Assembly (NCBI GenBank): GCA_035538835.1
Contig: DATLJN010000076.1
Span: 1 to 48,540 of the forward strand
Direction of reading: 5' to 3'
DNA length: 48,540 nt
Source of the DNA: Magnetospirillaceae bacterium
Lineage (GTDB): Bacteria; Patescibacteriota; Saccharimonadia; Saccharimonadales; EFPC-124
Position 1 is the first letter of the stretch. Every line of letters starts with the position of its first letter. The position numbers and the translations under genes were made by a program. This document shows positions 1 to 39,882 of this stretch, one piece after another. The notes under the pieces are model-generated. The model ran no database searches and was not told the origin of the DNA. It worked only from the letters and a program-made list of their open reading frames with translations.

Positions 1-1285
1 GGGCCGGAATGTTGATCAGGTGGGTGCGCAGGGTAGCGCCGCGGGCGGCGGTGTAGCGGGCGGTGCCGGTCAGGGTGGCGGCGGCGCGTAGCAGGTTGTG
101 GCAGATCGCGGCGAGGATGTTCCAGGCGGTGTTGGCGGCAAAAGAACCGGAGGGTTGGTGTGCCCAGGGTCCGTCGATCAGGTCGGACCAGACGGTTTCG
201 CAGATGGCGTGGTGGCGGTGGGTGAGGTCGGCTTGGTCGACGGGTTCGGTGTTGTTGGTGAAGAACGGGTGGTAGCGCCAGACCGGGAACAGCGGGTCCT
301 GGGTGTTGGCGTCCAGGACGCGGCGTACGACCAGCCAGCCGGTAAACGCGTGCGGGGTGTCGGCGAAGGCGGTGTATTCCACTTCGGCGACTTGCGCGTC
401 GGAGATCAGTTCGCCGGTGTCGGGATCTTCGTGGGCGCCTGGGTAATCGACGGGGACGTAAGCGTCGTCGGGGATGCTGTTGATCGCGGCGTCGACGCAA
501 TTGTTGCGGGCTATCGCGAAGGAGAAGGTGGCGCCGGCTTTGACGACCGCGGCGACCACCTTGCCGCTGCAGAACGCCGAGTCGCCGCGCATGAGAATGT
601 TGTGGGCCTGTGCACCGCAGGCTTGGGCGGTGTTGATCGCCTCGGTGACCATGCCGGCCGCGCCCCGCGACGAACCGGCACGCCCGGCCCGTAACCGCAC
701 CCCGGCCACCACCGGCGCGGCTATCCGGGTGCAGATCGTGGTTACCAGTGGTGACAGGCCGCGGCGCAGGACGGTCTTGCCGGCGATTTTGGTGTGGCCG
801 AACGAGGCGCCCTGCTTGGCTTTGCCGTACACCGGACGCAGCAGCGAATCGATGTCGATGAAGCAGCGCTCCTGGATGCCGTCCAGCAGCCCTGTCTGCT
901 GCGCCAGCGCGACCAGATGCCGGCGCAGCACCGCCGCAAGCTGCAGGGTATGGCCGTGGGTGAACTCGCGTAACAGGATCCCCAACGTGGCGTTGGCGTA
1001 CACCCCGCCGAAGAGTTGTTTCATCCCACCGGCACGGATGACGTCCAGGTCGTCGATGCTGTCCGCACCGGCGGCCATCCCAGCCACGATAGAGGTCAGC
1101 TTCGGTGTCGGGTTGGCCGCGCCGGAGCGGACCCGCTCGCTGGTGAACCGGACATGCTCATCCAGCAGCCGGGACAACCCGGCCTGCTCGGCCAGTTCCA
1201 GCAGCGGCACCAGACCCGCATGCGACACCAGATTTTCCTCGTCGAACACCGCGCTATCACCGCGCCAGGCATGAGATGCTTGCAC
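1..1285 (-). CDS. IS1380-family DDE transposase (C-terminal end beyond window start)
   Basis: Absent from the ORF track because its stop lies outside the window. Manual minus-strand translation from GTG 1285 stays open to position 1: VQASHAWRGDSAVFDEENLVSHAGLVPLLELAEQAGLSRLLDEHV...GADSIDDLDVIRAGGM...FGHTKIAGK... This N-terminal pattern is recalled from actinobacterial IS1380-family transposases. Codons are GC3-rich. Confidence 0.7.
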   Translation of the reverse strand, partial: MQASHAWRGDSAVFDEENLVSHAGLVPLLELAEQAGLSRLLDEHVRFTSERVRSGAANPTPKLTSIVAGMAAGADSIDDLDVIRAGGMKQLFGGVYANATLGILLREFTHGHTLQLAAVLRRHLVALAQQTGLLDGIQERCFIDIDSLLRPVYGKAKQGASFGHTKIAGKTVLRRGLSPLVTTICTRIAAPVVAGVRLRAGRAGSSRGAAGMVTEAINTAQACGAQAHNILMRGDSAFCSGKVVAAVVKAGATFSFAIARNNCVDAAINSIPDDAYVPVDYPGAHEDPDTGELISDAQVAEVEYTAFADTPHAFTGWLVVRRVLDANTQDPLFPVWRYHPFFTNNTEPVDQADLTHRHHAICETVWSDLIDGPWAHQPSGSFAANTAWNILAAICHNLLRAAATLTGTARYTAARGATLRTHLINIPA

Positions 1286-1286
1286 C

Positions 1287-1359
1287 GAGAGTGCCTTTCC
1301 AAGCCGGTCTGATCAAGGTCCTAGACAAACCTGATTATCCCAGCAGGACAGGCACTCTC
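1287..1359. repeat. 10-bp perfect inverted repeat GAGAGTGCCT (1287-1296) / AGGCACTCTC (1350-1359) next to the transposase start
   Basis: Read directly from the sequence. It could fold in the transposase 5' leader or lie near the IS terminus. Confidence 0.5.
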
Positions 1360-1751
1360 ATCACATTTCTACGCCACCGTTTGGACACAATGGACCGACC
1401 CCGTCCACGGATTCAGGCTAAGAGTGAAAACTCGTGACGGTGCCTTGAGGTCAAAGGCTGCCAGTCGGTGGTGTTAAATCCACAAAAGTTGTTGACTAAA
1501 TAAACTAAATAATTAAATCTCAAATGGTGCGGGAACGGTGAACCCTGGTGGCGCGCAAAAGCTCGTGGAAGAACATGTGCGCGCCTCCGTGGACTCACCA
1601 TAACCGGCATATTTACCGGCTTCGTTTATTTAAGCATGTCTTGATCTTGCCCTCAATGTGGTGGGTCTGTTCGTCATGCGTGAGGCCCAGTGGATATGCC
1701 GGTACTCCTCCAAAACCCAAGCGACATAACGGAAGGGAGAGGTATGACTAA

Positions 1752-1940
1752 GTGACCAACGTAGACAAACCCGAGCCGGGCAACCCGATCGTCGTCACCG
1801 GCCAGGAGCGGGCGCAACCGGCGGTGCGGCTGCTTGCCAGAGCTGCCATTGAGCTTGCGCGGCAACAGATTTCAGAATCCAAGCGTCAAGCGGAGACCAC
1901 TGGCGACACGCCCGAGCACGAGGGCGGTCGCCGTGCCTGA
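1752..1940 (+). CDS. small hypothetical protein (62 aa), first gene of the transfer module
   Basis: GTG start is preceded by GGAAGGGAGAGG. The frame is GC3-rich. Its stop overlaps the GTG start of the next gene (GTGCCTGA). Confidence 0.4.
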   Translation: MTNVDKPEPGNPIVVTGQERAQPAVRLLARAAIELARQQISESKRQAETTGDTPEHEGGRRA

Positions 1941-4140
1941 CCTTTGCTGGTTCGAAATCCACCCGCCGCGGGAGGTCGACCTGGCCGCGGTCACGGCGGT
2001 TATCCGCCCGCTGGCATCACGACCACGCTACGGCTTTCCCGCTGCGACGCCGCCCGTCGTCTTCGAAATGTGGAGCATCGGCGGCAAAGTTTCGTGGCTG
2101 CTCGGCATGGACCACCGGCTGTCCGGGAGCCTTCCAGCTCAGCTTCAAGCACACCTGCCGCGCCTTGGCCTGACACCCCAACCGACGCCACAGCGGCCGG
2201 CGCTGTCGGTCGGCGCGACTGTCCGCCTGGCCGGGTTGTCCTCGCCGCTGCGTACCGACACGGCGGGCGCGGTGAGCGCCGAACTTAGCTCCACCCTTTC
2301 GCGGCTGGGCAAAGACGAAGCCGCCTGCGTCCAGTGGGTCGTAGGTTCGAGCCAGTCGCGGGTCATTAGCCCGGCGAAGGTGGAGTTGGCCAAGGCGCTC
2401 GGTTTCCGCCCAGGCCATGGGGCGGTGCCGACACCGACCACGGAGCGGCTGTTCCGTGAGAAGGCCGCCGAACCGCTGTTCGGCGTACTTGGCCGCATCG
2501 CGGCTGCGGCCAAGGATTTCAGTCGCGCCAGCGCCATAGTGCGCGGCGTGGGCAGCGCCCTCCATCTCCTCAGTGCCGAACACGCCAGCCTGCGGGTCGG
2601 CCGGACAGATGCCGGAACCGCGCAGCGGCTCCACGACGCGGCCAAGCCGCCGTTTAGCTGGAGCGCAATCTTGAACGCCAGGGAGCTGGCCGCAGTCATC
2701 GGTTGGCCGACACAGGACGATGTGCCGGACCACCTGCCGACCGTCGGCGGGCACATTAACCTGGTTCCGTACCCGTTGTTGGGGGCGGAGCCGGATGGCG
2801 ATACGCACCCAAGCGAGCGGGTAATCGGGGAGAGCCTGCACCCGGCGCAGCGCGGGCAGCTGGTCACCATGCCGATTGCAAGTGCCAACCACCATACCCA
2901 CCTGATAGGTCCGACCGGTTCCGGAAAATCCACGCTCCTGTGTGGATTAATCCAAGCTGACATCGCGGCTGGACGCGGAACGCTTGTCGTCGAACCGCGT
3001 GGGGATCTCATAGAGGATGTGTTGGCCCGGATTCCAGCCGACCGCCGTGACGACGTGGTGGTCATCGACCCGGCGGACGCCTCGCGCGGCGTTGTCGGAC
3101 TCAATGTGCTTTCCGGACCGCGCGAAACCGCCGAACGCCGTGCCGACGAATTGGTTGGTCTGCTGGCAGCTATGGCTGGCAGCAACTGGGGACCCAGAAC
3201 AGCCGACGTCGCCCTGCACGCAATCCTCACGGCCGCAAGGCTTCCGGACGGCACCCTGCCGGATGTCGTGCAGCTGTTGACTAATCCGGGCTTTCGCCGC
3301 CGGGTGTTGGCGCAGGTTGGCGACCCGCTGGTGCTTTCGCCGTGGTGGGCGGGCTTCGAGGCTCTATCGGACGGTGAGAGAAGCCAATACATAGCGCCGT
3401 TGCTCAATAAACTCCGCGCCTTCCTTTCCAGGGATGTACTGCGGCAGATGACCGGCCAGTCCAGTCCAGCGTTCAGCTTCGACGATCTATTTACCAAGCG
3501 GCGCATTGTTTTGGCCAACCTGAATCGCGGGCTTCTCGGCGGCCCGGTATCCAACCTACTCGGTGCGCTGGTGCTCAGCCAGGTATGGGCGGCGCTGCAA
3601 CGCCGCACGGCTGTGCCGCGCGAACGGCGAAGCGTTACCGGCCTGTATGTGGATGAGTTCCAGGACTACGTGGATATCGTCGGTGGCCTCGACTTTGGCG
3701 ACGCACTCGCCCAGTCGCGCGGCCTGGGCGGAGCGTGGACACTGGCACACCAGCACTTCGCGCAGCTGTCGTCCGGCCTTCGGGCGGCGGTCCTCGCCAA
3801 CGCTCGCTCACGAATCACCTTTCGCCCGGGAACGGACGACGCGAAAGCCCTGGCCGTCGCCTTCGGATCGCGGCTCACCGCAGAAGATTTGCTCCGCCTT
3901 GGCAGCTACGAAGCCGTCGCCCAAATCCACCTGCACGGCCAGCCGACCCAACCATTCGCGGTGCGCACCCTGCCGCTCAGCCCGTGGACGAGTAAACCCG
4001 ACGAACTTCGCCGTTCAAGCGCCGAGCGTTACGGGATGGATGGCGCGGCAGTCGATGCCGCCCTTGCCGAACGCTGGCACGGCACGGGCGGCGGATCTCC
4101 CGATGAGCCCATCGGGGCGAAGCCGAGGCGACGGCCATGA
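1933..4140 (+). CDS. TraD/TraG/VirD4-like (type IV coupling protein-like) P-loop ATPase
   Basis: Walker A is GPTGSGKST and Walker B-like is LYVDEFQDY, followed by TLAHQHFAQL and ANARSRITFR. No N-terminal TM segment is seen. Start is set at GTG 1933, in frame with ORF-track 1834..4140, because the upstream part overlaps the small ORF. Confidence 0.65.
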   Translation: MPDLCWFEIHPPREVDLAAVTAVIRPLASRPRYGFPAATPPVVFEMWSIGGKVSWLLGMDHRLSGSLPAQLQAHLPRLGLTPQPTPQRPALSVGATVRLAGLSSPLRTDTAGAVSAELSSTLSRLGKDEAACVQWVVGSSQSRVISPAKVELAKALGFRPGHGAVPTPTTERLFREKAAEPLFGVLGRIAAAAKDFSRASAIVRGVGSALHLLSAEHASLRVGRTDAGTAQRLHDAAKPPFSWSAILNARELAAVIGWPTQDDVPDHLPTVGGHINLVPYPLLGAEPDGDTHPSERVIGESLHPAQRGQLVTMPIASANHHTHLIGPTGSGKSTLLCGLIQADIAAGRGTLVVEPRGDLIEDVLARIPADRRDDVVVIDPADASRGVVGLNVLSGPRETAERRADELVGLLAAMAGSNWGPRTADVALHAILTAARLPDGTLPDVVQLLTNPGFRRRVLAQVGDPLVLSPWWAGFEALSDGERSQYIAPLLNKLRAFLSRDVLRQMTGQSSPAFSFDDLFTKRRIVLANLNRGLLGGPVSNLLGALVLSQVWAALQRRTAVPRERRSVTGLYVDEFQDYVDIVGGLDFGDALAQSRGLGGAWTLAHQHFAQLSSGLRAAVLANARSRITFRPGTDDAKALAVAFGSRLTAEDLLRLGSYEAVAQIHLHGQPTQPFAVRTLPLSPWTSKPDELRRSSAERYGMDGAAVDAALAERWHGTGGGSPDEPIGAKPRRRP

Positions 4141-5081
4141 CCGCTCACAGCCCTACCGACCGCCCTACCCTTCGCCTCGGGCCAGGGGTAGCCCCGACGT
4201 GCGAGAACACCGAGCAGATCGCATCTACTGTCTCGTCGTCTTCCGCGCAGCTTCAGACGACTCGACCGCCCGGCCGCTCAGGACGGATCGCACGCCTGCG
4301 GGAGCGGATGAGCGGGCGTGACGCAGGGATGCTGCAATCGCTGGCACTGCTTCGCCTGATGACCGGCGGGCAGGTCGAGCGGCTGCATTTCACCGAAGGC
4401 TCGCCCGCCACCCGTGGCCGACGCTGCCGGGCGGCGCTCAAGCGGCTGGCCGAGCTTCGGCTCATCGTGCGGCTCGGGCGTCGCATTGGCGGGGTGCACG
4501 CCGGAAGCGCCGCATATGTCATCGGGCTTTCGGGCTACGGCCAGGCGGTCGTCGATAGCGATGGGCCTATGGGCGGCCGGCGACGGCGCGTCTGGGAAAC
4601 CAAGCCAAGCTTTACCGATCACGTCTTGGCGGTCGCCGACCTCTACGTTCGCCTGGTCGAGACCGAGCGGCTCGATCAGTTGGAGTTGCTCGAATTTCAG
4701 GCAGAGCCGCAGGCTTGGCGGCAATCCACCGGCAGTCACGGGCAAGCGGTGACCCTCAAGCCAGATGGATTCGTCCGGCTCGGCGTTGGCGATATGGAAC
4801 TGAGCAACTTCGTCGAGGTGGACATGGACACCGAAAGTCCGGCCACCCTTGGCCGCAAGATGCAGGCCTACGCCGCCTACTACAGAACAGGTGTCGAACA
4901 ACGCAGGCATGGCGTGTTCCCGCGCGTCTGGTGGCTTGGCTGCTCGGCGCGCAGCGTGGAACGCATCGCTCGCGTGGTACGCGGCCTGCCCCTTGATACT
5001 CAACCGCTGTTCGGCGTCGCTCATCTGGAGGACGCCATCCAGTCCCTAACAACCACGGCAAAGGAGGCCGCTCGTGAATGA
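4137..5081 (+). CDS. replication-relaxation (Replic_Relax) family protein
   Basis: ATGA overlap with the upstream gene. N-terminal winged-helix-like segment [19 protein letters not shown], then KPDGFVRL...FVEVDMDTE and YAAYY motifs as recalled for this family. The family commonly sits next to coupling-protein ATPases on Gram-positive mobile elements. Confidence 0.6.
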
Positions 5082-6136
5082 ACAATGAAACATCCCAACC
5101 CGCTAAACCCGCACTGCCACTGGGGCAAATCCTGATCGGAGATGCCCGTAAGCGGCTGCGCGAGCTGCCAAAGGGCAGCATCGACTGCTGTATTACCAGC
5201 CCACCGTATTACCAACTCCGCGACTACGGCCAGAAGGAGCAGCTCGGACTGGAAGACACCGTGGACGACTGGGCACTGAATCTCGCCGATGTCTGCGACG
5301 ACATCGCCCGTGTGCTCAAGCCGACTGGCGCGCTGTGGCTGAACCTCGGCGACCAGTACTCCAGTCACATCCGGCAGGGAACAGCGTTCAAGAGCTTGTT
5401 GCTGGGACCGCAACGGGTGGCGCTGGAGCTGGCAAAGCGGGGCTGGATCATCCGCAACCAGATCGTCTGGGCAAAGAAAAATCCAATGCCCTCAAGCGTT
5501 TCCGACCGCTTTACCAGTAGCTACGAGGTGCTGCTGTTCTGCGTGCGCTCGCGCCATTACCACTTCGACCTCGACCGGGTACGCCAGCCGCACGTCACTC
5601 CGACGCAGCCGAAGCGGCCGAAATCCCTGGACTACCAATACCTACCGAAACATGCCGTGCCCGAAGGCGGGCTGGTCGACCTCAACCGCGGGCTGGGTGC
5701 ACTCAAGGCGCGGGGTTTGGTTGGACATGATCTTGGGAAGAACCCCGGCGACGTCTGGCATTTGCCCACCGCCGCCTACCATGGCTCCCACTTCGCCACT
5801 TTCCCCGTGAGCCTGGTCGAGAGGCCGCTACTAGCCACCTGCCCCGCGAGGGTCTGCGTGGCTTGCGGAACGCCGTGGAAGCGGCGGCCGACGAACAGAA
5901 ACACCCGACCGGTTCGGCTCGGCACGTTGGTGTCGTGCTGCGAGTGCGAAGCAGAGACCCTGCCAGGCGTTGTGCTCGATCCGTTTCTCGGCAGCGGAAC
6001 CACAGCAGTCGCTGCGGAGACGTACGGCCGGCGGTGGATCGGGATCGAGCTCAACCCTGTGTACGTCGAGCTAGCCAACGCGCGCCTGCACCAGTGGCGG
6101 GCCGAACAGGCTGAGCGACAAAGCAAACGCCCGTAG
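5078..6136 (+). CDS. beta-class N4-cytosine/N6-adenine DNA methyltransferase (orphan)
   Basis: Catalytic motif [11 protein letters not shown] is near the N-terminus and the AdoMet motif [12 protein letters not shown] is near the C-terminus. A Cys-rich insert (CPARVCVAC...CCEC) lies between them. No adjacent endonuclease-like ORF. Confidence 0.8.
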
Positions 6137-6229
6137 CAACGTGTCGGCCTCGTCGGTGCCCTGCGGCCGAATGTCGTCATCCCTAAAAACCAAAGTGGAT
6201 GGCCGGCCGCTCGCACCGAGGAGGAGTCC

Positions 6230-6550
6230 ATGACGGACCCGAAGAGCTCCGGCGTCAAGACGCTGGGCGTGAAGCTCGACGATGCGCTGCACAGCCAGTT
6301 CTCACTGGTTGCAGCGCTCGATGAGCTGAGCCTCAACGACGCCGTGATCCGCGCGGTGGCGCTGTACGTCAAGACCAAGCAGCAAGAGCCGGACTTCGCA
6401 GCCAAGGCCGCTGCCAAGCTCGAGGAGATCGAGCGGGAAGCGGCAGCCAGGCGCGGAGCGATCCAGGCGCTGTTTGGCGGCACTGTGCCAGCCGAGGAAA
6501 CCAAGGCGGCCAAGGGAAGCAAGCGCGGCGGTGGCGAGACGGGCGCGTAG
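6230..6550 (+). CDS. ribbon-helix-helix (CopG/Arc/ParG-like) DNA-binding protein
   Basis: SD GAGGAGGAG lies upstream of the ATG. KTLGVKLDDALHSQFSLVAALDELSLNDAVIRAVALYV fits a strand-helix-helix layout. The C-terminal tail is low-complexity and Ala/Lys/Glu-rich. Confidence 0.5.
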   Translation: MTDPKSSGVKTLGVKLDDALHSQFSLVAALDELSLNDAVIRAVALYVKTKQQEPDFAAKAAAKLEEIEREAAARRGAIQALFGGTVPAEETKAAKGSKRGGGETGA

Positions 6551-6560
6551 GTGCGCCGAA

Positions 6561-6586
6561 GGTGGAGGAGCCTTCGCTCCTCCACC
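6561..6586 (+). terminator. G+C-rich hairpin after the RHH gene (GGTGGAGGAG-CCTTCG-CTCCTCCACC), no T-tract
   Basis: Perfect 10-bp stem beginning 11 nt after the stop codon. This is an actinobacterial-style terminator without a U tail. Confidence 0.4.
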
Positions 6587-6799
6587 GCACTACCCTCACG
6601 AAATTCGAACTCGTATGGGAGTGCTGAGAATTCCGCAGCACACTCTTTCGAGGAATGCTGCAATAATGACCTTGTTAACATAGGAGGAAGTAAATGTATG
6701 ACACAACGCAAAGATGGCTTTGACCAGGACGGACAACGCGATACCCTACCTGACCCTGGCGCGAAATCTCGCGCCAACGGCGATCTGGGAGGGCGGGAA

Positions 6800-7204
6800 A
6801 TGCATTCCACGAATGACGGCGCGAAACGCGCCATGGTCTATATCCGTGTGGCGAGCGCGGAGCATGGTTCAGAGGAACAGGCGCAACAGCAGGAGGTCGC
6901 CTGCAGGGAAACAGCTCAGCGGCTCGGGTTCACGCCCGTTGCCGTATATAGCGATATTGGCAGCACCGAGCGCCCCGGGCTGCGGCGGATGCTGGATGAG
7001 CTGGACACCATCAAGCCGACATCAGTCATAACCTTGGATCCCAGCCGGTTCGGACGAAAATACCAAGAGAACATGGCGGTGATGACTCGGCTGAGAGCGG
7101 CGGGCGTGGAGCCGGTATTTGCGCATGACCCAACCGAGGATCCGCTCGGACTTTCTTGGCGGCGGAGCGAAGCCTCTGTGGTGCGAGAGGCTGATGCAAA
7201 ATGA
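6800..7204 (+). CDS. serine-recombinase (resolvase) catalytic-domain-only protein
   Basis: SD GGGAGG precedes ATG 6800. MVYIRVASAE..., YSDIGSTERPGLRRMLDEL and ITLDPSRFGRK resemble the resolvase N-terminal domain. No HTH or recombinase domain follows. The usual RVS[ST] motif reads RVAS here. Confidence 0.55.
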   Translation: MHSTNDGAKRAMVYIRVASAEHGSEEQAQQQEVACRETAQRLGFTPVAVYSDIGSTERPGLRRMLDELDTIKPTSVITLDPSRFGRKYQENMAVMTRLRAAGVEPVFAHDPTEDPLGLSWRRSEASVVREADAK

Positions 7205-9180
7205 CCGCACATCGCGAACACGAAGCGCCGCCGCTGCACCTACCGCACGACAACGGCACCGACCAGGATCTTGATAGGCGGTCGGCGCGAAGCCTGCGGC
7301 GTGCAGCCAACAGCGAGGTGACGGTTGCTGGTCGGCGCGCCCTTGTCGTGCAGCTCAACGACACCGGTTCTGGTATTGCGGAAATGGCTACCTTCCTACG
7401 GGTAAAACGACCAGGGCTGGAACAACTGACCGCTACCCATATCCCCAGGGTGGCGATATATCTTCGGGTCAGCACCGAGGAGCAAGCCCGAGTCGGCGGC
7501 CAAGCCGAGGGCTTTTCGATCCCGTACCAACGCGACGCTTGCCTGACGAAGGTGCGCGACTTGGGCGGCATCCTGGCAGGCGAATACGTGGATGCCGGAG
7601 AGAGCGCAAAATCGGCTGACCGTCCCGAGCTGCAACGAATGCTTAAGGACCTCAAGGCCAAACGGATCGACTACGTCCTCGTCCACAAGATCGACCGGCT
7701 GGCCCGCAACCGTGCCGACGACGTCGCCATTAATACGGCCATCGCGGCGGCCGGTGCCAAGCTCATCTCGGTGGCCGAGCCGGTCGATGAAACCCCGGCG
7801 GGCAAGCTGCTCTACAACATGATGGCCGGGGTTGCCCAGTACCACTCCGACAACCTGGCCGTCGAGGTGCTCAAAGGCATGGTCACCAAGGCAAAGATGG
7901 GTGGTACGCCCTACCGTGCGCCACTGGGCTACCTCAACCACCAGGAAATCCACGATGGCATCGTGGTGCGCAGTATCGTGCTCGACCCTGAGCGAGCGCC
8001 GCTGATCCGCTGGGCCTTCGAGCAATATGCCCTGGGCATCTGGTCGTTGAGCCGCTTGGTGGACGCCTTGAATTCGCAAGGCCTGACCTCCCGGCCGACG
8101 CCCAAGCGGCCAGCCAAGCCGATCTCGCTCAACGGCATCCATTTCCTGATGCGCAACCCCTACTACATCGGTGTGGTGCCCTACCGGGGTGTGTTCCACG
8201 AAGGCAAACACGAGCCGCTGGTCAGCGTAGAACTGTGGCTACGGGTCCAAGACGTACTGACCGCCCACCGCGTCTCGGGCGACAAACAGTTCAAATACGA
8301 GCATTATCTCAAGGGCAGTATCTTTTGTGGTCAATGCGGTGCCCGGCTGGTCTACAGCCGCAACCGCGGCCGGGGCGGGGTCTACGAATATTTCGACTGC
8401 CTGTCCAAGAAAACCAAGCGACGCCCCTGCACCCAACGAGCTGTGCGCCTGCATAAGGTCGAAGCTGGCGTCGAACGGCTCTACGAGCACTTCCATCTTT
8501 CGGCTGCAAGGGCCACGCAGATCCGGGACGCGGTGCTCACCGAACTCGCGGCCGACCGTGACGAAGCAGACCGAGAAGTCCAGCGTGCGCTCAAGCGACT
8601 CCGCGCGGCGACTGACCAGCAGGCCAAACTGCTCCAGGCGCACTACGCCGGGGCGGTGCCGCTCGAGCTCATGAAGGCCGAGATGGAGCGGTTGACCAGC
8701 GAGAAAGCCCAAGCCGAGCGTTCCATCGCCAGCGCCAAGTCTTCTGTCGCCGACCTGGAAACCACGCTCAACGCGGCGCTAAAGATTGCTACCGAATGCC
8801 ATACCTATTACCACGAGGCTGAACCAGCCATCCGCCGCAGGCTCAACCAAGGCTTCTTCAAGAAGCTATATATACATGAAGACGGCCAGGTTGACCGCTT
8901 TGAGCTGACCGAGCCGTTTGCCACGCTGCTTGACCGCAGCCTGCCAGGCGTGCTTGCCAACCAGCGGCAGTCCCGGCTCGCCGGGGACCTTGCAGAGCAC
9001 CAGGAGCACAGGCTCGACACCGAAATCACAGCCGAAGACCGCACCAGCCCGTCAGCGGTACTGGCAAAAACCTTCACATGTGTGTCGAAAACAGACCAAC
9101 CGGACGGCGGTGCCATCCGGTTGGGTTTGAACATCCATGATGTGGTGCTGGGAGAGGGAGTCGAACCCCCGAAGACATAA
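7201..9180 (+). CDS. large serine recombinase (integrase)
   Basis: The catalytic domain shows AIYLRVSTEEQ, ADRPELQRML and VHKIDRLARN. It is followed by a recombinase domain, a zinc ribbon (CGQCGARL...DC...C) and a long coiled-coil. ATGA overlap with the upstream gene. Alternative starts are ATG 7384 or GTG 7450. The last ~40 codons lie in mid-G+C DNA, and the stop (9178-9180) falls inside antisense tRNA-Tyr. Confidence 0.9.
   Translation: MTAHREHEAPPLHLPHDNGTDQDLDRRSARSLRRAANSEVTVAGRRALVVQLNDTGSGIAEMATFLRVKRPGLEQLTATHIPRVAIYLRVSTEEQARVGGQAEGFSIPYQRDACLTKVRDLGGILAGEYVDAGESAKSADRPELQRMLKDLKAKRIDYVLVHKIDRLARNRADDVAINTAIAAAGAKLISVAEPVDETPAGKLLYNMMAGVAQYHSDNLAVEVLKGMVTKAKMGGTPYRAPLGYLNHQEIHDGIVVRSIVLDPERAPLIRWAFEQYALGIWSLSRLVDALNSQGLTSRPTPKRPAKPISLNGIHFLMRNPYYIGVVPYRGVFHEGKHEPLVSVELWLRVQDVLTAHRVSGDKQFKYEHYLKGSIFCGQCGARLVYSRNRGRGGVYEYFDCLSKKTKRRPCTQRAVRLHKVEAGVERLYEHFHLSAARATQIRDAVLTELAADRDEADREVQRALKRLRAATDQQAKLLQAHYAGAVPLELMKAEMERLTSEKAQAERSIASAKSSVADLETTLNAALKIATECHTYYHEAEPAIRRRLNQGFFKKLYIHEDGQVDRFELTEPFATLLDRSLPGVLANQRQSRLAGDLAEHQEHRLDTEITAEDRTSPSAVLAKTFTCVSKTDQPDGGAIRLGLNIHDVVLGEGVEPPKT
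9098..9122 (-). terminator. probable intrinsic terminator of the tRNA-Thr/tRNA-Tyr operon
   Basis: The minus strand reads AACCGGA-loop-TCCGGTT, followed by GGTCTGTTTTCG and a second T-run (GGTTTTTGCC). It lies 20 nt downstream of the tRNA-Tyr 3' end. Confidence 0.4.
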
Positions 9181-9228
9181 GTCGTCTGATTTACAGTCAG
9201 ATGCGTTTGACCACTTCGCTATCCCAGC
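9143..9228 (-). tRNA. tRNA-Tyr (anticodon GTA), class II with long variable arm, CCA encoded
   Basis: Minus strand: GCTGGGA-TA-GCG..CGC-A-TCTGA-CTGTAAA-TCAGA-long variable arm-GGGGG-TTCGACT-CCCTC-TCCCAGC-A-CCA. The acceptor and anticodon stems pair perfectly. Confidence 0.9.
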
Positions 9229-9246: not shown

Positions 9247-9323
9247 TGGAGCCGACGGAGGGATTCGAACCCACGACCCGCTGTTTACAAAACAGCCGCT
9301 CTGGCCAACTGAGCTACGTCGGC
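9247..9323 (-). tRNA. tRNA-Thr (anticodon TGT), CCA encoded
   Basis: Minus strand: GCCGACG-TA-GCTC..GAGC-G-GCTGT-TTTGTAA-ACAGC-GGGTC-GTGGG-TTCGAAT-CCCTC-CGTCGGC-T-CCA. There is one T:T mismatch in the T stem. Confidence 0.85.
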
Positions 9324-9426: not shown

Positions 9427-9810
9427 TCACCCTATGAACATTGTGCCCGGCAAACAACAGCAGCAGGCCACGAGCAACATTATAACGCCAGGCCAAAAGA
9501 TGCGCCGCTGCTTGAGCTTGCGAGTATGTCGTCCGACAGCCTCCCAGGTTCCCTCGTTGTCTTGCCACAATACTTCTCCGTGTACCGCCGGGTCAGATTG
9601 AACGGCACGTGACTTTCGCCAAGCTCGGTGCAAGCAGACCTCGATGAGTCCCCACGATGCGAGAGTAGCGAAGAACAGCGCGGCCACATAGGGCTTGCCA
9701 TGCTCGACCATCGACCGCATGGCCAAATAGTCGATACCTGCGTACATGAGCAAAAGGGCGAAGAGAATCTTGCGCGGCGAGATGATGTACCGCCGCACGG
9801 TGCTCGTCAT
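9427..9810 (-). CDS. hypothetical membrane protein (about 3 TM segments)
   Basis: ORF-track frame with SD-like AAAGGAAA upstream. Hydrophobic segments are ILFALLLMYAGIDYL, YVAALFFATLASWGLIEV and IFWPGVIMLLVACCCCL. Confidence 0.5.
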   Translation of the reverse strand: MTSTVRRYIISPRKILFALLLMYAGIDYLAMRSMVEHGKPYVAALFFATLASWGLIEVCLHRAWRKSRAVQSDPAVHGEVLWQDNEGTWEAVGRHTRKLKQRRIFWPGVIMLLVACCCCLPGTMFIG

Positions 9811-13737: not shown

Positions 13738-14697
13738 GTGGAGATATTTTGGAGTTCCATCGACCTTGTACGCCTAACCTTTTTGGTTGGCGCCGTACTG
13801 GCACTGCTGTATAAGAAAAAGTTTGGTGTCACGCCAGGCGGCATCATTGTCCCCGGGATTCTTGCAAGCCTTATCTTTATCAACTTTCCTGCTTTTATTG
13901 TTATGTTAGCGCTCAGTGTTCTGTGCTGGGCGATATATAAGTATACGTTCGGTCGTTTTGCGTTGACGCGCCGCTGGGCGTCGCTTATTACAATCTCTGT
14001 ATCTGTCGTGCTGGGACTTATATCTATGGTTGCATTTAACTCGGCACACATCTTTAACCAAGAATTATTGGTAAGTCTCGTGGTACCTGGCCTTATTGCT
14101 ATTAGTGCACGCAAATATGGGCTGGGTAAGGTGATGATAGGAACACTATCGGTTACAGCAGTAAGCTACCTGGCCGGTTGGGCGCTCGCCTATGCTATCC
14201 CTTACGAGATACTTACCTACATGACCGTCAAACTCGGCACCTACACACCTTTGAGCCTCGAAAATCCTGCGCTCGTATTTATTGTGAGTCTTTTAGCCGC
14301 GGTGCTGGTGTATTACAAATTTGGTATCAGAGGCGGTGGCTACATGGTTGCGCCATTTATTGCGGCTGTAACCGTAAGCTCGCCAATACAAGCGCTCCTC
14401 GTTGCTGTGGGAGTCGCACTCAGTTATATCGCGGTGCGTTTGCTCCTACGCTTCACGCTTGTTATTGGGCTAGAGCGATTCGTGTTTAGCCTGGTGTGCG
14501 GCTACATTGTTATTACACTTATTGATTTACTCGCCACAATGGTTGTGATTCCTGGATACCGCCCAACGCCAATTGTGCTTATTATTGCCGTTGCCGTGTT
14601 TACCAACGACCTATCTTTGCAGTCACTCAAATCAACGCTGCTCAAGGGCTTTTCACCGACCCTAGCGATGGCACATCTCGCCAGATTGGCGGTGTAA
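13738..14697 (+). CDS. pgsC: PgsC/CapC-like poly-gamma-glutamate synthesis membrane protein, double length
   Basis: GVTPGGIIVPGIL and LVVPGLIAISARKYG match the two CapC VPG motifs. The second half repeats them in diverged form (GIRGGGYMVAPFI, MVVIPGYRP). The protein is polytopic. GTG start. Confidence 0.65.
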   Translation: MEIFWSSIDLVRLTFLVGAVLALLYKKKFGVTPGGIIVPGILASLIFINFPAFIVMLALSVLCWAIYKYTFGRFALTRRWASLITISVSVVLGLISMVAFNSAHIFNQELLVSLVVPGLIAISARKYGLGKVMIGTLSVTAVSYLAGWALAYAIPYEILTYMTVKLGTYTPLSLENPALVFIVSLLAAVLVYYKFGIRGGGYMVAPFIAAVTVSSPIQALLVAVGVALSYIAVRLLLRFTLVIGLERFVFSLVCGYIVITLIDLLATMVVIPGYRPTPIVLIIAVAVFTNDLSLQSLKSTLLKGFSPTLAMAHLARLAV

Positions 14698-14698
14698 A

Positions 14699-15925
14699 AT
14701 GTTCATTCTTGGCGCCGTTATTGTATTAGCTGCAGCTTACGTAGCTGTTGGTGTTATAAACCAACGACAACATTACAAAGCGATGCAAAACCTGGAACAC
14801 CGCATTCATGTTAACGGTATTCGCGGCAAGTCATCGGTGACGCGCTTGATCGCCGCTGCGCTGCGCGAAGGTAACATCAAAACTGCTGCTAAAACAACTG
14901 GCACCGCGGCACGTATTGTTGTCGACCACCAAAACGACACGCCTGTCCCGCGCAAAGAAGCCGACATTGCCGAGCAACGACGCATGCTTAAGTTTTACAC
15001 CGGCGATTTGCACCGCATGTACACCGGCGACGACTACAAAGCTGTTGTATTTGAGTGTATGGCGATCAACCCAATCTACCAACGTTACCTAGAAGATAAA
15101 ATCATGCACTCCACCATTGGTGTTATCACTAACGTACGCGAGGATCACGTCGAATTGCTCGGTACAACTCTGCCCGAAATTGCCCGCAGCCTTAGCATGA
15201 CCATCCCTAAAAACGGCCACCTCGTGACTGCCGAAACCAACCCTGAACTCCTGGCCATTCTTAAACAGGAGTGCGAAGTCCGCGGTAGTAAACTCCACGC
15301 TGTCGGCACCATGCGCATTACCGAAAAGCAAATGGCAGCCTTTAAACACTTTGAATATCGCGCCAATGTTGCCATTGCCGTTAAAGTGGCCGAGCTGCTC
15401 GGCGTTACACGCCAAACAGCGCTCAGCGGCATGCACAGCGCACAACCCGACCCCGGTGCCTTTATACTCAAGAAGTTTGAACGCGACACTAAAACCCTGC
15501 ACTGGGCAAACCTATTTGCCATTAACGACCGCGAAAGCTTTATTTTGACCGTTGATTCGCTACGTAAAAAAGTTGGTGCGCGCACCAAAAAAGCGGTGAT
15601 TCTTAATAACAGGCACGACCGTCCGGAACGCGTGGCGCAGTTTGTCGACATTGCTGTTAATTCGGTAAAAGCCGACTATATCTTTACCTTTGGCGACTAC
15701 GAAAACCAAGTACGCTATGAGCTTAAAAAATATCCAAACGTGCGCGTAAAAGTAATGCACCTTGGTAACGGCACCGAATACAAAGACGCGTCGGGCGAGG
15801 TATTGTTCGAACAAATTATCGGCACTATCAAGCAAAAAGAATGTATTTTGTTCGGTACGGTTAATATTCACACACGTCAGGCACAGTCGCTGTTAACGGT
15901 GCTGGAAGGCTCTAATGCGCACTAA
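14699..15925 (+). CDS. pgsB: poly-gamma-glutamate synthase PgsB/CapB (Mur-ligase-like amide ligase)
   Basis: An N-terminal TM helix, then HVNGIRGKSSVTRLIAAAL (P-loop), ECMAINP, ITNVREDH and PDPGA. It is collinear with Bacillus CapB as recalled. Confidence 0.85.
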   Translation: MFILGAVIVLAAAYVAVGVINQRQHYKAMQNLEHRIHVNGIRGKSSVTRLIAAALREGNIKTAAKTTGTAARIVVDHQNDTPVPRKEADIAEQRRMLKFYTGDLHRMYTGDDYKAVVFECMAINPIYQRYLEDKIMHSTIGVITNVREDHVELLGTTLPEIARSLSMTIPKNGHLVTAETNPELLAILKQECEVRGSKLHAVGTMRITEKQMAAFKHFEYRANVAIAVKVAELLGVTRQTALSGMHSAQPDPGAFILKKFERDTKTLHWANLFAINDRESFILTVDSLRKKVGARTKKAVILNNRHDRPERVAQFVDIAVNSVKADYIFTFGDYENQVRYELKKYPNVRVKVMHLGNGTEYKDASGEVLFEQIIGTIKQKECILFGTVNIHTRQAQSLLTVLEGSNAH

Positions 15926-16580
15926 AATTCCCGGGGCCGTTTTTGTAATGATTCTTGTTGGTTTCTTTAGCTACCTCACGTATCAACATTTCTTTTTTGA
16001 TGATACAGCCGTGGCAAAGTCGGCAATCCAATTTAAGATCGACCAGCTCAATATCGCCCCCGATGCGCCAGCTAAGCCACCCGAATATTTTGGGCTTAAG
16101 CGCGCCGAAGTCGCTTTGCAGGAATACCACAAAGGCGTTGTTGAACCAACGCCTGGCTGCAACTGCGGCCCCGATGTCGATAAATACACCGAGAGCACGC
16201 CCGCCCAGTGGTGCGCCATGTTTGTAAGCTGGGTGTCCAAAGAGGCCGGCGCGCCAATGTACGACGAACGCACAAAATCGTGGCGTTTTATGAACTCACG
16301 TCTGCTTATCGAATACCTAAAATTGAGCGGCACTTGGTATAGCCGTGAGGAAGTAATTACCAAAAACCTTAAGCCACGGCTCGGCGACTTTGTGTTCTTT
16401 TACCGCGGTGAGCTGGAAGAGAACTTAGGCCACGTTGATGTCGTTGTCGATGTTGATGGCGCGCCAGGCACTGCTGGTTTAATTGGTGGCAACATCCGCG
16501 ACCGCGTTATGTACCGCGAAAATTTCCCTTACCAAGAACATTATGGCTTTTTAGGCTTTGGCCGACCAGAGAAAGATTAG
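15915..16580 (+). CDS. membrane-anchored CHAP-domain cysteine peptidase/amidase
   Basis: An N-terminal TM helix. Candidate nucleophile in QWCAMFVSWV, and GDFVFF...GHVDVVV...GGN consistent with the CHAP Cys-His-Asx arrangement. Confidence 0.6.
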   Translation: MRTKIPGAVFVMILVGFFSYLTYQHFFFDDTAVAKSAIQFKIDQLNIAPDAPAKPPEYFGLKRAEVALQEYHKGVVEPTPGCNCGPDVDKYTESTPAQWCAMFVSWVSKEAGAPMYDERTKSWRFMNSRLLIEYLKLSGTWYSREEVITKNLKPRLGDFVFFYRGELEENLGHVDVVVDVDGAPGTAGLIGGNIRDRVMYRENFPYQEHYGFLGFGRPEKD

Positions 16581-16587
16581 GTTACGT

Positions 16588-36642: not shown

Positions 36643-36713
36643 TTATATGCTCCATTATTTTCTTAATTTCGCGCATGAGGTAGCAGAGCCACCGGATGCG
36701 ACGTATGTTCCAG

Positions 36714-36743: not shown

Positions 36744-36760
36744 GACTTTGTACAAAAGCG

Positions 36761-36789: not shown

Positions 36790-36799
36790 TCTCGTGCTC

Positions 36800-37192
36800 T
36801 TATTCGGTCGTGATAGGGACACGACGCGCGCGCCGGCGATTTTGGATCTTCTTTCGCTGGAGCCGCTGTCCTTTGAGTTGTCGCGGGTCGACCAACCTGA
36901 CCAGGCTAGGCCGAAGATCCAACCCAACAACGCGAGCATAGCGCTGCATTGTCGAAAGCCGACCATCCTCGAGAAGGTCCGCCTCGCGCCGCTTAACCAG
37001 CCGCGGCAACCAGTACCACACTGTCGCTCGCCTAAACCAGCCGGGTCTGTGTAGCCAGCCAATTTTGGAAGCAAACTCGTAATCGGTCATACCTAGCGCC
37101 CGGCGCATGGCGTGCAGGTGCGAAACCAACATATAGCGGTTGTACGAATCGACTTGCTCGCCTGACAATACAGGCACAGCGCCGTCGGTCAT
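36800..37192 (-). CDS. XRE-like helix-turn-helix protein with basic C-terminal tail
   Basis: SD GAGGAG is present. LHAMRRALGMTDYEFASKIG...STMQRYARVVGLDL resembles an HTH_XRE layout. G+C is elevated. Confidence 0.45.
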   Translation of the reverse strand: MTDGAVPVLSGEQVDSYNRYMLVSHLHAMRRALGMTDYEFASKIGWLHRPGWFRRATVWYWLPRLVKRREADLLEDGRLSTMQRYARVVGLDLRPSLVRLVDPRQLKGQRLQRKKIQNRRRARRVPITTE

Positions 37193-37269: not shown

Positions 37270-37887
37270 TTAAGCCGCGATCGCTTGGCTTTGAGGACCC
37301 GTATAGACTTCGCGTAAATCGGTTTCGAGTTCACTAATAACTGTGGCCGCCGTGAGCTGTGTGGCATATTCAGCGGCAGTACGACTATCGGCCATTTGGT
37401 TAACCGTATGCTCAAGATAGTCATGCAAAATAACAGCGTAATCTTCTAGCGCGGCTCGTAAATATACGGTTTGGTCAGGCTGTGGATGTTCATCACCTAA
37501 AAGAGATGCCGCGTAGTTTATGGCTAAACTACTACATTCAAAAGCCTCATTGGGGCTAAAAAGGGCATCGGGCGCCGTAATTACGTAGGCAGCTACCCTC
37601 AGTAACAACCGTTCACGTTCTTGAGTAGTGATTTCTGCTGATTTAAGTACACGCACACCATATTCTGCGGGCCGCGGCCTCGGAAGATGGTCGGTAGCCA
37701 GGAACGCCAGCTCTTCGGCCAAGTCAGGAGAAAACCTTAATGCGCGCGCAAATAATCGTTTGAGCGACGCTTCAATTGCTGCAGCATCGCCTTCAGCAAG
37801 CTCAGTAAGGGTGGCCTCGAAGACCGAGTTAATTGAATCCTGTTCTGCCGCTGCCTCGTTGCCGGCCGGTTCTTGTCTTTGTTCCAA
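37270..37887 (-). CDS. hypothetical acidic, predicted all-helical protein (205 aa)
   Basis: TTG start with AGGAG 9 nt upstream. No recognisable motif. Confidence 0.4.
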   Translation of the reverse strand: MEQRQEPAGNEAAAEQDSINSVFEATLTELAEGDAAAIEASLKRLFARALRFSPDLAEELAFLATDHLPRPRPAEYGVRVLKSAEITTQERERLLLRVAAYVITAPDALFSPNEAFECSSLAINYAASLLGDEHPQPDQTVYLRAALEDYAVILHDYLEHTVNQMADSRTAAEYATQLTAATVISELETDLREVYTGPQSQAIAA

Positions 37888-38250: not shown

Positions 38251-38277
38251 CAACCTCCCGCGCGGAGGTTGTTTTTT
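38251..38277 (+). terminator. plus-strand intrinsic terminator with no annotated plus-strand gene (CAACCTCC-CGCGC-GGAGGTTG-TTTTTT)
   Basis: 8-bp G+C-rich stem followed by six T on the plus strand only. It overlaps the stop codon of the minus-strand ORF 38276..38725. Confidence 0.5.
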
Positions 38278-38725
38278 ATAGTCCGCGTAAATCGGCAATA
38301 ATATTTAATAGTTCATCAGCGGTTTCGTGGAGATACATCCACCTTAATTGAGCAATGACACCCTCATCCTGCGTCCCTTCAGGGCCATAAATCAGATCTA
38401 AAAATTTGTCGGCATCATCTAGTTCAAGCCACAACTGTGCTTTTGCAACTTCATAACCTATCCGCGCCCGTTGGTTATTACCCCCTGCAAGGCTCTTTTC
38501 GGCGGTTAGTTCATAACCCTCCAGCAGTTCATGATGCCGTGGATTTGTCTTGTCAAAGCCGTTATCTGCGATGATTTGTGCAACTAGCTGCCGACGCGCC
38601 TCGCCGGCCTGAGGAGATTCTACATAATCCAATACTTCAACAACTGTGCCGAGCCTTTCATTGATGACTTCAAGTTCAGGATCGAGGCGTGCATAATGTT
38701 CGTGCGACTGATCTTGTTCGGTCAT
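38276..38725 (-). CDS. hypothetical acidic helical protein (149 aa)
   Basis: ORF-track frame. There is no SD, but a TATAGT box ends 7 nt before the ATG, so the mRNA may be leaderless. Confidence 0.4.
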   Translation of the reverse strand: MTEQDQSHEHYARLDPELEVINERLGTVVEVLDYVESPQAGEARRQLVAQIIADNGFDKTNPRHHELLEGYELTAEKSLAGGNNQRARIGYEVAKAQLWLELDDADKFLDLIYGPEGTQDEGVIAQLRWMYLHETADELLNIIADLRGL

Positions 38726-38886: not shown

Positions 38887-38922
38887 AGCTGGAGTAAGTA
38901 GCAAGACTTGAGAGGAGATCCA

Positions 38923-39882
38923 ATGTCTGGAATCCGAGACTTGGGCCGCACGAGTGGTACTGTCCCCGCCAGCACCGACCTTCCAACAATCACAGGCAGT
39001 ATCGCCTTCACGAACGGGCCCATCGCCCGTGCGCTGAACGAGTACGCCCTGGTCACTGGACTGAGCGGTCTGGAAGCGCTGCAGCTCGTTGGTACCAATC
39101 CCGGTCAGGCCGAGTTGATCGACTGGATCGTCACGCACTACGCGCAGATCGCCCATCTGCGGGATCTCACCTCGCTGGCAAGCCGCGACTACGCGGTGCT
39201 CAACAGCTTCCTGGAGGCCCACGGGTTCTCCCCGCTGTTCACACCGTTTCCTCAAAGCGATGTCGGCATCACCGCGATCCTCGACGCCCCCATGAAGTGG
39301 GTCGAGGCCGGAGAGCGCACCACCATCACCCGCATGGCCGGTAGTCAGCAGGCCACCTACCCCGCGTTCAAGCTCAAGAGCACTGGCGCGAAACGCCAGC
39401 ACCTTTTCGACGCCGGACCCTTCACCGACCGGGTCGTCATCAAAACTCAGAATGGTCACTTCGTCTACTTGGGCATGCTGCCCGAGGATATGGAAGGGCC
39501 GCGCGACGGCGCCGCCGTCCTGAAATTGGCGCGCCAAATGCTGGGAGCTCGGACTCAGGACACCCACGATCCGGCGGGAGTCATTCTGCCGATGATCAGC
39601 TTCGACAACGTCAGCGAGCTGCCGTGGCTCAACGGCCTCGCTGTTGGCAAGAGCGACACCCTTAACCAGTGCCGCCAGCACGTCAAGTTCTACATGAACG
39701 AGATTGGCGCGCGCATCTCCGCTGCTTTCGCCGGCGTGATGTTTCGTAGCGCGCCGCCTGCGCCGTATGTGATCAACCAGCACTTCGTGCTGGCCATCGC
39801 CGACGACACAACGCCAACCACAGTGCTGTACCTGCACCCCGACGATAGTTGGGCTGAGCCGCCCGCTGGAGTCATCCAGTAA
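38923..39882 (+). CDS. serpin-like protein (short N-terminal region), G+C-rich
   Basis: SD GAGGAG lies 5 nt before ATG 38923. The C-terminal ~200 aa are collinear with serpins as recalled. PMKW matches the s3A KGKW region, and MLPEDMEG matches LPDEG. ILPMISFDNVSELPWLNGLAV matches LPKLSI..DLK..L..LG. NEIGARISAAFAG is a hinge-like ExGxxxxAA. YVINQHFVLAI matches 10 of 11 positions of the PROSITE serpin signature as I recall it. Confidence 0.55.
   Translation: MSGIRDLGRTSGTVPASTDLPTITGSIAFTNGPIARALNEYALVTGLSGLEALQLVGTNPGQAELIDWIVTHYAQIAHLRDLTSLASRDYAVLNSFLEAHGFSPLFTPFPQSDVGITAILDAPMKWVEAGERTTITRMAGSQQATYPAFKLKSTGAKRQHLFDAGPFTDRVVIKTQNGHFVYLGMLPEDMEGPRDGAAVLKLARQMLGARTQDTHDPAGVILPMISFDNVSELPWLNGLAVGKSDTLNQCRQHVKFYMNEIGARISAAFAGVMFRSAPPAPYVINQHFVLAIADDTTPTTVLYLHPDDSWAEPPAGVIQ

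Follow-up and report, generated by a model that had tools for sequence, protein, structure and literature searches.

Integrative and mobilizable elements (IMEs) combining a MOBC (PF13814) relaxase with a coupling protein and a serine integrase have been listed for Firmicutes (PMC5357655, PMC5704250). Actinomycete integrative and conjugative elements (AICEs) include pSAM2, SLP1 and pMEA300, together with a Mycobacterium group that uses serine recombinases and integrates in tRNA-Leu; serine-recombinase integration at tRNA genes has been termed rare (Ghinet et al. 2011, PMC3218068). For Patescibacteria, a survey counts 109 relaxases in 103 of 3,035 genomes (~3%), with MOBC as the commonest class (58) and 39 relaxases next to t4cp, and its authors read them as acquired mobile elements, so that the general phenomenon had already been noticed (Quinonero-Coronel et al. 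2025, PMC12102498). We describe here an element on contig DATLJN010000076.1, a complete contig of 48,540 bp (the window hereafter) from a third party annotation (TPA) metagenome-assembled genome (MAG) at NCBI. Positions 1416-9142 of the window are, in our confident reading, an actinobacterial-family integrative element inserted, probably recently, in a Saccharimonadales chromosome immediately 3' of tRNA-Tyr; this segment most probably represents the integrase-proximal part of the integrated mobile element. An initial annotation of the window had proposed a G+C-rich element of actinobacterial character beside tRNA-Tyr on a chromosome resembling those of the candidate phyla radiation (CPR), and its overall interpretation is largely supported by the analysis that follows.

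The element resembles the Firmicutes IMEs in being small, in joining an integrase, a nickase and a coupling-type ATPase in a tightly coupled operon and in having no VirB4 or mating-pore genes in its visible part. It differs from them in its hosts, which are Actinomycetota and Saccharimonadales, in its ATPase, which is predicted to be soluble and to carry a novel 290-aa N-terminal domain, and in its integration at the 3' ends of tRNA genes through a large serine recombinase (LSR) whose open reading frame (ORF) crosses the attachment (att) site. With the AICEs it shares an actinobacterial reservoir, a scale of 10-25 kb, tRNA 3'-end integration and a core of one ATPase and one nicking protein, but where AICEs employ an FtsK/SpoIIIE-type TraB and RepSA, RepAM or Prim-Pol, it has a Replic_Relax nickase and an ATPase with the predicted fold of TrwB, a type IV coupling protein (T4CP). 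Pfam searches of the window and of two relatives, L083 and L085 (see below), returned no match to PF01580, RepSA, DUF3631 or Prim-Pol; with no FtsK-type TraB, RepSA, RepAM or Prim-Pol, the element therefore falls outside the AICEs. The phage integrases TP901-1, A118, phiC31 and Bxb1 have the three-domain architecture and catalytic serine motif of the window LSR and integrate within protein-coding genes, whereas the clade to which the window LSR belongs inserts at the very 3' end of genes for tRNAs (Tyr, Leu, Arg), with coding sequence running across the site. Compared with the Patescibacteria survey, whose accessible part gives no donors, boundaries or integration sites (PMC12102498), the present case resolves the junction, the unoccupied sites, the donor phylum (81% amino acid identity to Micromonosporaceae) and the integrase. 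No case in which donor phylum, integrase, att site and unoccupied sites are all resolved was found in the searchable literature.

The junction at tRNA-Tyr

The left part of the window stands apart in composition, as the initial annotation had noted for positions 1 to ~9060. In 1-kb steps, G+C content is 0.59-0.685 across 1-9000 and ~0.45-0.55 thereafter; by segment, it is 0.659 for 1-1415 and 0.634 for 1416-9142 versus 0.508 for 9143-48540. At third codon positions (GC3), the element genes show values of 0.71-0.84, with 0.61 in a small resolvase ORF, and 9 of the 10 flanking ORFs measured lie at 0.49-0.58, the exception being orf127 beside tRNA-Thr (0.70). The boundary itself lies neither at ~9060 nor at 9180 and is corrected here to 9142|9143, directly 3' of the CCA end of tRNA-Tyr.

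On its way into the tRNA, the element ends in a hairpin (9096-9124) and an arm. The hairpin, already noted in the initial annotation and confirmed by a terminator scan, has a 13-bp stem, lies within the coding end of the LSR gene and is followed on the minus strand by a short T-rich run, TCTGTTTTCG, so that it may replace the displaced terminator of the tRNA-Thr/tRNA-Tyr operon, for which a promoter-like site is found at 9381-9353. The arm, GGTTTGAACATCCATGATG, spans 9124-9142 and shares its first base with the hairpin stem. In the window, L083 and L085 alike, hairpin and arm (GGTTTG(C/A)ACA..) abut TGGTGC, the reverse complement of the GCACCA-3' end of the tRNA. The final 12 codons and the stop of the LSR gene are the reverse complement of tRNA-Tyr; conservation in the LSR alignment extends as far as ...VRLGLH..LV..G.EP, and the residues beyond are the tRNA T-arm read backwards. 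Since the end of the LSR reads tRNA sequence, the integrase gene spans the attachment site.

The DNA to the right of the junction carries core chromosome genes, among them holB, rluA, trpS, pgsBC, rpoA, a ribosomal-protein operon, secY, tuf, fusA and rpoC. Its elongation factor G (EF-G) is 91-92% identical to proteins from 'Candidatus Saccharimonadales bacterium' MAGs, some of them on contigs of 0.56-0.89 Mb, and the top match of its TrpS is a Saccharibacteria MAG sequence (52%), followed by one bin at 48% and the rest at 39% or less. The synteny tRNA-Tyr, tRNA-Thr, TPR, holB, rluA is common to the relatives L090, L094 and L097, whose contigs carry an identical tRNA-Tyr. Judged by these sequence matches, the host flank is a Saccharimonadales (CPR/Patescibacteria) chromosome, in agreement with the CPR-like traits first ascribed to it, and because EF-G and TrpS both point to Saccharimonadales, the NCBI label 'Magnetospirillaceae bacterium' is wrong for this contig.

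Metagenome contigs were scanned for the 34-nt 3' half of the window tRNA-Tyr, and 18 mid-GC, Saccharimonadales-like contigs matched. The element is missing from all 18, and a native hairpin/T-run terminator follows the tRNA in the majority; the complete 86-nt gene is unchanged in all 16 contigs that show it whole (one with a single extra base). The nearest relative, L096, shares with the window the Tyr-Thr spacer and the DNA downstream (85% over 385 nt), and identity begins exactly at TGGTGC. From the identical tRNA in unoccupied contigs and the L096 breakpoint it follows that tRNA-Tyr is wholly host-type and that element DNA starts after its CCA end. The placement beside tRNA-Tyr in the initial annotation is thereby refined to an exact breakpoint, and the empty site that it had envisaged in related genomes is found 18 times.

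The same junction could have arisen as an assembly or binning chimera, in which a G+C-rich segment from an actinobacterium in the same soil sample was joined to the host contig via the tRNA. Conserved tRNAs such as the one at the junction are places where assembly graphs become tangled; a repeat, the insertion sequence (IS), forms the left end of the contig; the junction is known from assembled sequence alone; and the break of a Logan assembly in tRNA-Thr and the odd taxonomic label of the MAG, both taken up below, would fit as well. For a de Bruijn misjoin, however, the two sides must have k-1 bases in common. Against the host part of the window and against the 18 Saccharimonadales contigs, the longest exact match of the element is 15-16 nt, and between the tRNA region and other family members it is 10-12 nt; with no shared word above 16 nt, there is no bridge of k>=21 between element and host. 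No actinobacterial tRNA-Tyr resembling that of the window was found in the plasmid collection, mislabelled actinomycete chromosomes included. A chimera also sits poorly with a tRNA-Tyr that is host-type throughout, its 3' half identical in 18 Saccharimonadales-like contigs, with element DNA that begins directly past the CCA end and with a distance from element end to tRNA 3' end that is the same in two other family members. Finally, an independent assembly contains a 114-kb contig with the same passage from element to mid-GC host at tRNA-Leu, and two independent misassemblies with the same geometry are very unlikely. We consequently hold a chimeric origin to be very improbable.

Other arrangements occur at this tRNA cluster. 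In L100 (WNGM01042027.1, 2622-2680), only the 3' half of tRNA-Tyr, to the anticodon loop, is present and is joined to unrelated DNA, the look expected of an att repeat from a different, tyrosine-integrase-style element at the same tRNA. In L103, tRNA-Tyr is not directly followed by tRNA-Thr. In L003 (13903-14201), a distant Saccharibacteria-like relative (TrpS 48%), the tRNA-Tyr/Thr cluster adjoins trpS-rluA-holB-TPR in inverted orientation and with an extra tRNA-Thr(GGT). This apparent inversion of the tRNAs relative to trpS was set aside, as closer relatives match the window arrangement.

Relatives in Actinomycetota and a second case at tRNA-Leu

The actinobacterial character initially ascribed to the element agrees with the taxonomy of its best matches. 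For the ATPase, identity is 81% to the protein of Allorhizocola rhizosphaerae, a Micromonosporaceae isolate, 57% to those of Glycomyces and Micromonospora and ~50% to those of Frankia, Lentzea, Pseudonocardia and Streptomyces; its named homologs are all actinobacterial, several of them on chromosomes of 7-12 Mb. Named LSR homologs (47-62% identical, the best at 58-62%) are likewise actinobacterial, save one labelled as an Acidobacteria MAG. In tetranucleotide usage, the element correlates at 0.89 with the chromosomal flank of the Allorhizocola copy, at 0.95-0.97 with other family members and at 0.54 with its own host flank. A plasmid database held no near DNA match to the window beyond 45 nt of the IS, only ATPase matches of at most 35% identity (Embleya/Streptomyces records) and no match to Replic_Relax, while IMG/VR held no ATPase relative and LSR relatives of at most 45% identity. 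By these sequence comparisons, the main reservoir of the element family is Actinomycetota (Micromonosporales, Glycomycetales and relatives).

Two relatives allow a gene-by-gene comparison: L085, the A. rhizosphaerae locus, and L083 (also L105), the 114-kb contig JAWVHH010000298.1 of assembly GCA_040384045.1, which derives from a different sample (SRR26324625). The order small ORF, ATPase, Replic_Relax, methylase, ~105-aa ORF, LSR is common to both and to the window, and their DNA is 73-74% identical to window 1416-6798 and 7450-8935; in blastn, 1416-6798 of the window aligns with L085 9440-14808, and 1444-6798 with L083 9506-14844. The LSR ORF of each relative runs into a tRNA gene on the opposite strand and stops within it, at tRNA-Arg(CCG) in L085 and tRNA-Leu(GAG) in L083. 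An actinobacterial location of the L083 copy is ruled out by the G+C profile of the contig, 0.57-0.67 up to tRNA-Leu and 0.45-0.51 beyond it, with a drop from ~0.61 to 0.48 at the tRNA, and by its flank proteins: a FAD-linked oxidase and two further proteins, one of 364 aa and a tRNA-binding one of 108 aa, share clusters of at least 90% identity with proteins from the MAG of the window itself (VM581 locus-tag prefix). The tetranucleotide correlation between L083 and the window host flanks is 0.84, equal to that of confirmed relatives. With an ATPase and an LSR 79.5% and 58% identical to those of the window, the L083 element is a related but distinct member of the family placed in like manner at tRNA-Leu, and its host is, on these sequence data, probably closely related to that of the window.

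Neighbour-joining places the window beside Allorhizocola and L083 beside a further contig, L107, and all four nest among Micromonospora and Glycomyces sequences, a pattern that hints at more than one inter-phylum event. One could instead suppose that the insertion is real and records no host-to-epibiont transfer, with the family either long established in Saccharimonadales or moving from there to actinomycetes. Two Saccharimonadales-borne copies (window, L083), and possibly L107, form one clade in which just one copy, 78-84% identical, is actinobacterial; element G+C is 0.62-0.63 in all hosts, below the 0.68 of the Allorhizocola flank; and MOBC relaxases next to t4cp genes are reported from Patescibacteria (PMC12102498). 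That clade is nested, however, among sequences from Micromonospora, Glycomyces and other actinomycetes, some on 7-12 Mb chromosomes. An element 13 G+C points above its host is atypical for a long-term resident, whereas 5 points below an actinomycete host is typical; the absence of the element from all 18 contigs with the identical tRNA-Tyr 3' half and the actinobacterial type of the accompanying IS1380 likewise speak against residence. We regard this alternative as unlikely. An element transferred from Actinomycetota to Saccharimonadales is, as far as sequence can indicate, most probably what the window records, and since its composition has not been ameliorated, the transfer would be recent.

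L107 (JAWVHH010013329.1) is a third family member from the same assembly as L083, GCA_040384045.1, which has >13,000 contigs and is not a clean genome. Its ATPase (5661-7824), 81% identical to that of the window, is broken into 101 aa and 626 aa by what looks like a frameshift, and its left part, comprising a STAND NTPase, small ORFs and DUF2637, may resemble the missing left part of the window element.

Gene content and a proposed route of transfer

The features of the element and its surroundings are collected in Table 1. Gene starts and stops are tightly coupled, as first described, with GTGCCTGA at 1933-1940 and ATGA at 4137, 5078 and 7201.

Table 1. Coordinates of features in the window (+, forward strand; -, reverse strand;., no strand)
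Feature	Position	Strand	Evidence or remark
IS1380-family DDE transposase, partial (437 aa readable)	1..1290	-	Pfam DDE_Tnp_1_4, 75.6 bits; runs off left contig end
Left breakpoint of homology to family members	1416..1443	+	blastn against L085 and L083
Highly conserved non-coding region; candidate promoter plus origin of transfer (oriT) or 5' untranslated region element	1444..1751	+	alignment A2
Conserved 62-aa ORF	1752..1940	+	overlaps ATPase gene
Coupling-protein-like ATPase, 735 aa	1933..4140 (alternative start 1834)	+	Pfam TrwB_AAD_bind, 30.4 bits
Replic_Relax/MOBC-class nickase, putative relaxase or replication-initiating nickase	4137..5081	+	PF13814
Orphan N6/N4 DNA methyltransferase	5078..6136	+	PF01555 (N6_N4_Mtase), 144 bits
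Conserved 106-aa ORF; possibly a ribbon-helix-helix (RHH)/HicB-like regulator or recombination directionality factor	6230..6550	+	
Small resolvase-domain ORF, only in this copy	6551..7204	+	Pfam Resolvase, 52 bits
LSR (integrase), 659 aa	7201..9180	+	Pfam three-domain match
Element right end, putative P half-site of attR	9096..9142	.	hairpin 9096-9124 plus conserved arm
tRNA-Tyr(GTA), intact, host-type	9143..9228	-	ARAGORN, Rfam
tRNA-Thr(TGT), host gene, same operon as tRNA-Tyr	9247..9323	-	ARAGORN, Rfam
ORF in fusA-tuf island	36800..37192	-	no Pfam match
ORF in fusA-tuf island	37270..37887	-	no Pfam match
ORF in fusA-tuf island	38276..38725	-	no Pfam match
ORF in fusA-tuf island	38908..39882	+	no Pfam match

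The LSR matches Resolvase (PF00239, 107.9 bits), Recombinase (PF07508, 47.2 bits) and Zn_ribbon_recom (PF13408, 37.2 bits), and its catalytic motif, YLRVSTEEQ, is invariant in alignment A1. Its relatives in the PDB are the TP901-1, A118 and phiC31 integrases, with the A118 C-terminal domain at E 5e-7. By domain content it is a three-domain large serine recombinase, for which recombination of attP with attB is predicted. The initial annotation had counted two serine recombinases, of which this one stands; the second is the small resolvase ORF. Window 6798-7450 is without counterpart in L083 and L085, and a ~420-nt insertion has split the leader of the LSR, adding a divergent catalytic domain: residues 52-83 of the small ORF are the displaced N-terminal leader of the family LSR (47% identical to the L085 leader in BLASTP), and its catalytic domain, with RVAS in place of RVST, is 29-32% identical to LSR catalytic domains (BLASTP). 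The locus thus has, on sequence grounds, one functional-looking serine integrase and a small resolvase ORF that is probably degenerate; the latter may be a leftover without activity or a partner that regulates the integrase.

The ATPase and the integrase both have exact protein records. Homologs of the ATPase carry the name 'type IV secretory system conjugative DNA transfer family protein', and its Walker A motif reads GPTGSGKS. In an AlphaFold model (mean predicted local distance difference test score, pLDDT, 85.9), the C-terminal ~420 residues superpose on TrwB, the top Foldseek matches reaching E 6e-10 and TM(target) 0.60-0.65; they comprise a TrwB-like NTPase and an all-alpha domain, preceded by a ~290-aa N-terminal alpha/beta domain that is modelled as soluble. 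As modelled, the ATPase is a P-loop NTPase with the TrwB-type fold of a T4CP, and to this extent its description as VirD4/TraD-like holds; it does not hold for the transmembrane anchor (see below).

The two genes that follow bear out their initial assignments. The nickase matches Replic_Relax over the full profile (positions 1-191 of 191; 152.8 bits versus a cut-off of 25.3). PF13814 has been equated with the MOBC relaxase class (PMC5357655), and the fold of Replic_Relax is of the PD-(D/E)XK type (PMC3424549). The orphan methylase keeps its position in L083, L085 and L106, and because ArdA directly follows the methylase in L106, an anti-restriction or establishment role appears likely from gene context.

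Some of these genes also have phage-side matches that would fit a remnant of an integrated actinophage-like prophage or phage-plasmid in place of a conjugation-type element: LSRs are an enzyme class typical of phage integration (PHROG integrase, 307 bits), phrog_5156, of unknown function, is matched by the ATPase at 134 bits, and the nickase matches a PHROG for replication initiation. A phage origin nevertheless appears scarcely credible, given that neither the window nor the 10-17 kb of visible element DNA of L083, L085, L106 and L107 contains a gene for capsid, terminase, portal or tail, that the ATPase is without a relative in IMG/VR and that its model folds like TrwB.

Upstream of the ATPase operon, a non-coding region is conserved above the level of the genes. 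In alignment A2 (window, L083, L085, L107), mean column identity across 1444-1751 is 78%, with long invariant runs that include TTGACTAAATAAACTAAAT. The region contains a sigma70-like promoter (TTGACT, 17 nt, TAAATC) and, at ~1551-1588, a stem-loop GGCGYGCR-N20-YGCRCGCC with 3 compensatory pairs among four sequences (RNAalifold), and is on this evidence a candidate promoter plus oriT. The 62-aa ORF that follows has no Pfam or PHROG match; ORFs of 62 to 76 aa occupy the equivalent position in L082, L084 and L085. An RHH protein had also been proposed: the ORF, of 106 aa, is there, with 104- to 105-aa ORFs at the equivalent position in L083 and L085, and its sole family match is a weak one to HicB (E 0.016), which leaves the family call weak.

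At the left, the element is cut short by the IS. Its transposase is 60-64% identical, over 93-100% of the readable part, to annotated 'IS1380 family transposase' copies (tblastn) on plasmids of Rhodococcus, Nocardioides, Mycolicibacterium and Streptomyces, so that the IS is, by sequence, an actinobacterial-type member of IS1380, the family named in the initial annotation. The one IS end present on the contig is placed within 1291-1415, and the IS/element junction is also present in a Logan contig of the same sample (L082). Position 1416 corresponds to the last DUF2637 codons in Allorhizocola (the L085 gene ends at 9445), and the IS therefore sits at the 3' end of DUF2637. Leftward of this point, the relatives hold at least 9 kb more element DNA, with DUF2637, MT-A70 or CAP, small ORFs and a STAND-type NTPase; in the window, the IS stands in place of this stretch from 1416 leftward, up to where the contig stops. 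VirB4 is absent from the window and from what is visible of L083, L085, L106 and L107, none of which is seen to its left end. The IME traits visible in the window are thus an integrase, a nickase and an ATPase, with an attR and 18 unoccupied sites at the right and a contig that stops in the IS at the left.

Several observations weigh against an actinobacterial mobile element integrated at this Saccharimonadales tRNA. The contig contains only one element end, and the window, L083 and L085 show neither an att direct repeat of the tRNA 3' part nor an inverted P' arm. The only independent assembly of the same sample (Logan, L104) ends inside tRNA-Thr, short of the junction, and the MAG is labelled 'Magnetospirillaceae' by NCBI (locus tags VM581_...), so that the bin may be mislabelled or mixed. 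The link between the hosts of L083 and the window rests on MAG membership (locus-tag prefix) and composition, with no marker gene. As to function, the ATPase is without the canonical coupling-protein membrane anchor, no 19-residue Kyte-Doolittle window exceeding 1.5 in three family members; going by its model, it resembles a coupling protein in function yet lacks this one defining T4CP feature. The nickase, in turn, matches the PHROG 'replication initiation by nicking' (E 1.6e-12) and may be a replication initiator, not a relaxase; relaxase and rolling-circle initiator are both plausible roles for this putative enzyme.

In the mechanism that we propose for the integrated element, the LSR would recombine attP, carried on the element in its circular form, with an attB that consists of the tRNA gene's 3' end and the adjoining downstream DNA. 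The tRNA-Tyr gene would be left intact, and the element end would provide the substitute terminator-like hairpin. Because the integrase ORF spans the att site, its extreme C-terminus would depend on the state of the element and differ between the integrated and the excised form. After excision, the MOBC-type nickase might cut an origin in the conserved region 1444-1751, and the soluble TrwB-like ATPase might hand the DNA to a transfer channel encoded outside the visible part, for which the DUF2637 membrane protein of the relatives, a helper conjugative system or a resident Patescibacteria type IV secretion system (T4SS) are candidates. The orphan methylase could shield the incoming DNA from restriction. 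On the left, the actinobacterial-type IS1380 would have inserted at the DUF2637 3' end, where the assembly then broke.

Elsewhere in the window, the fusA-tuf interval holds a 3.3-kb island (36700-40020) of four ORFs (Table 1), with a local G+C spike of 0.617 at 39001-40000. A further candidate there, orf389 (38722-39891, minus strand), looks spurious, being antisense to 38908-39882. At 13738-17784, the host flank carries a capsule-type cluster with pgsC-like, pgsB and PGA_cap genes (poly-gamma-glutamate synthesis) and a CHAP-domain protein. The 127-aa ORF (9427-9810) that stands out in GC3 encodes a putative membrane protein, lies between tRNA-Thr and the TPR gene and is mostly without counterpart in L090, L094, L096 and L097, so that it looks like an insert specific to this strain.

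Probable exchange between Actinomycetota and Saccharimonadales

Cultivated Saccharibacteria are epibionts on Actinobacteria, and we infer the same relation for the host of the window element. To our knowledge, direct evidence for DNA flow between Saccharibacteria and Actinobacteria is thin, and mobile elements of the CPR have barely been described. The present locus offers a concrete, testable instance of inter-phylum mobile-element exchange, in which an intact-looking element with ~80% protein identity to that of a Micromonosporaceae isolate sits at a Saccharimonadales site resolved to the base pair, and it documents an LSR clade aimed at the extreme 3' end of tRNA genes. Integration by large serine recombinases is generally taken to be independent of host factors, which would make the crossing of phyla mechanistically easy, and the LSR with its tRNA-Tyr attB is a candidate host-factor-independent integration tool for CPR genetics. 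The element may also serve as a marker for inferring the hosts of uncultured soil Saccharimonadales.

A broader scenario, which we put forward tentatively and consider rather doubtful at present, is an active shuttle, in which small tRNA-targeting serine-integrase elements pass repeatedly, and perhaps both ways, between Micromonosporaceae-like actinomycetes of the soil and the Saccharimonadales that live on their cells. Part of this traffic would be at least two arrivals in one lineage, at tRNA-Tyr and tRNA-Leu, and the nickase and ATPase may exploit the chromosomal T4SS needed for epibiosis. If this shuttle exists, the element would mark host identity.

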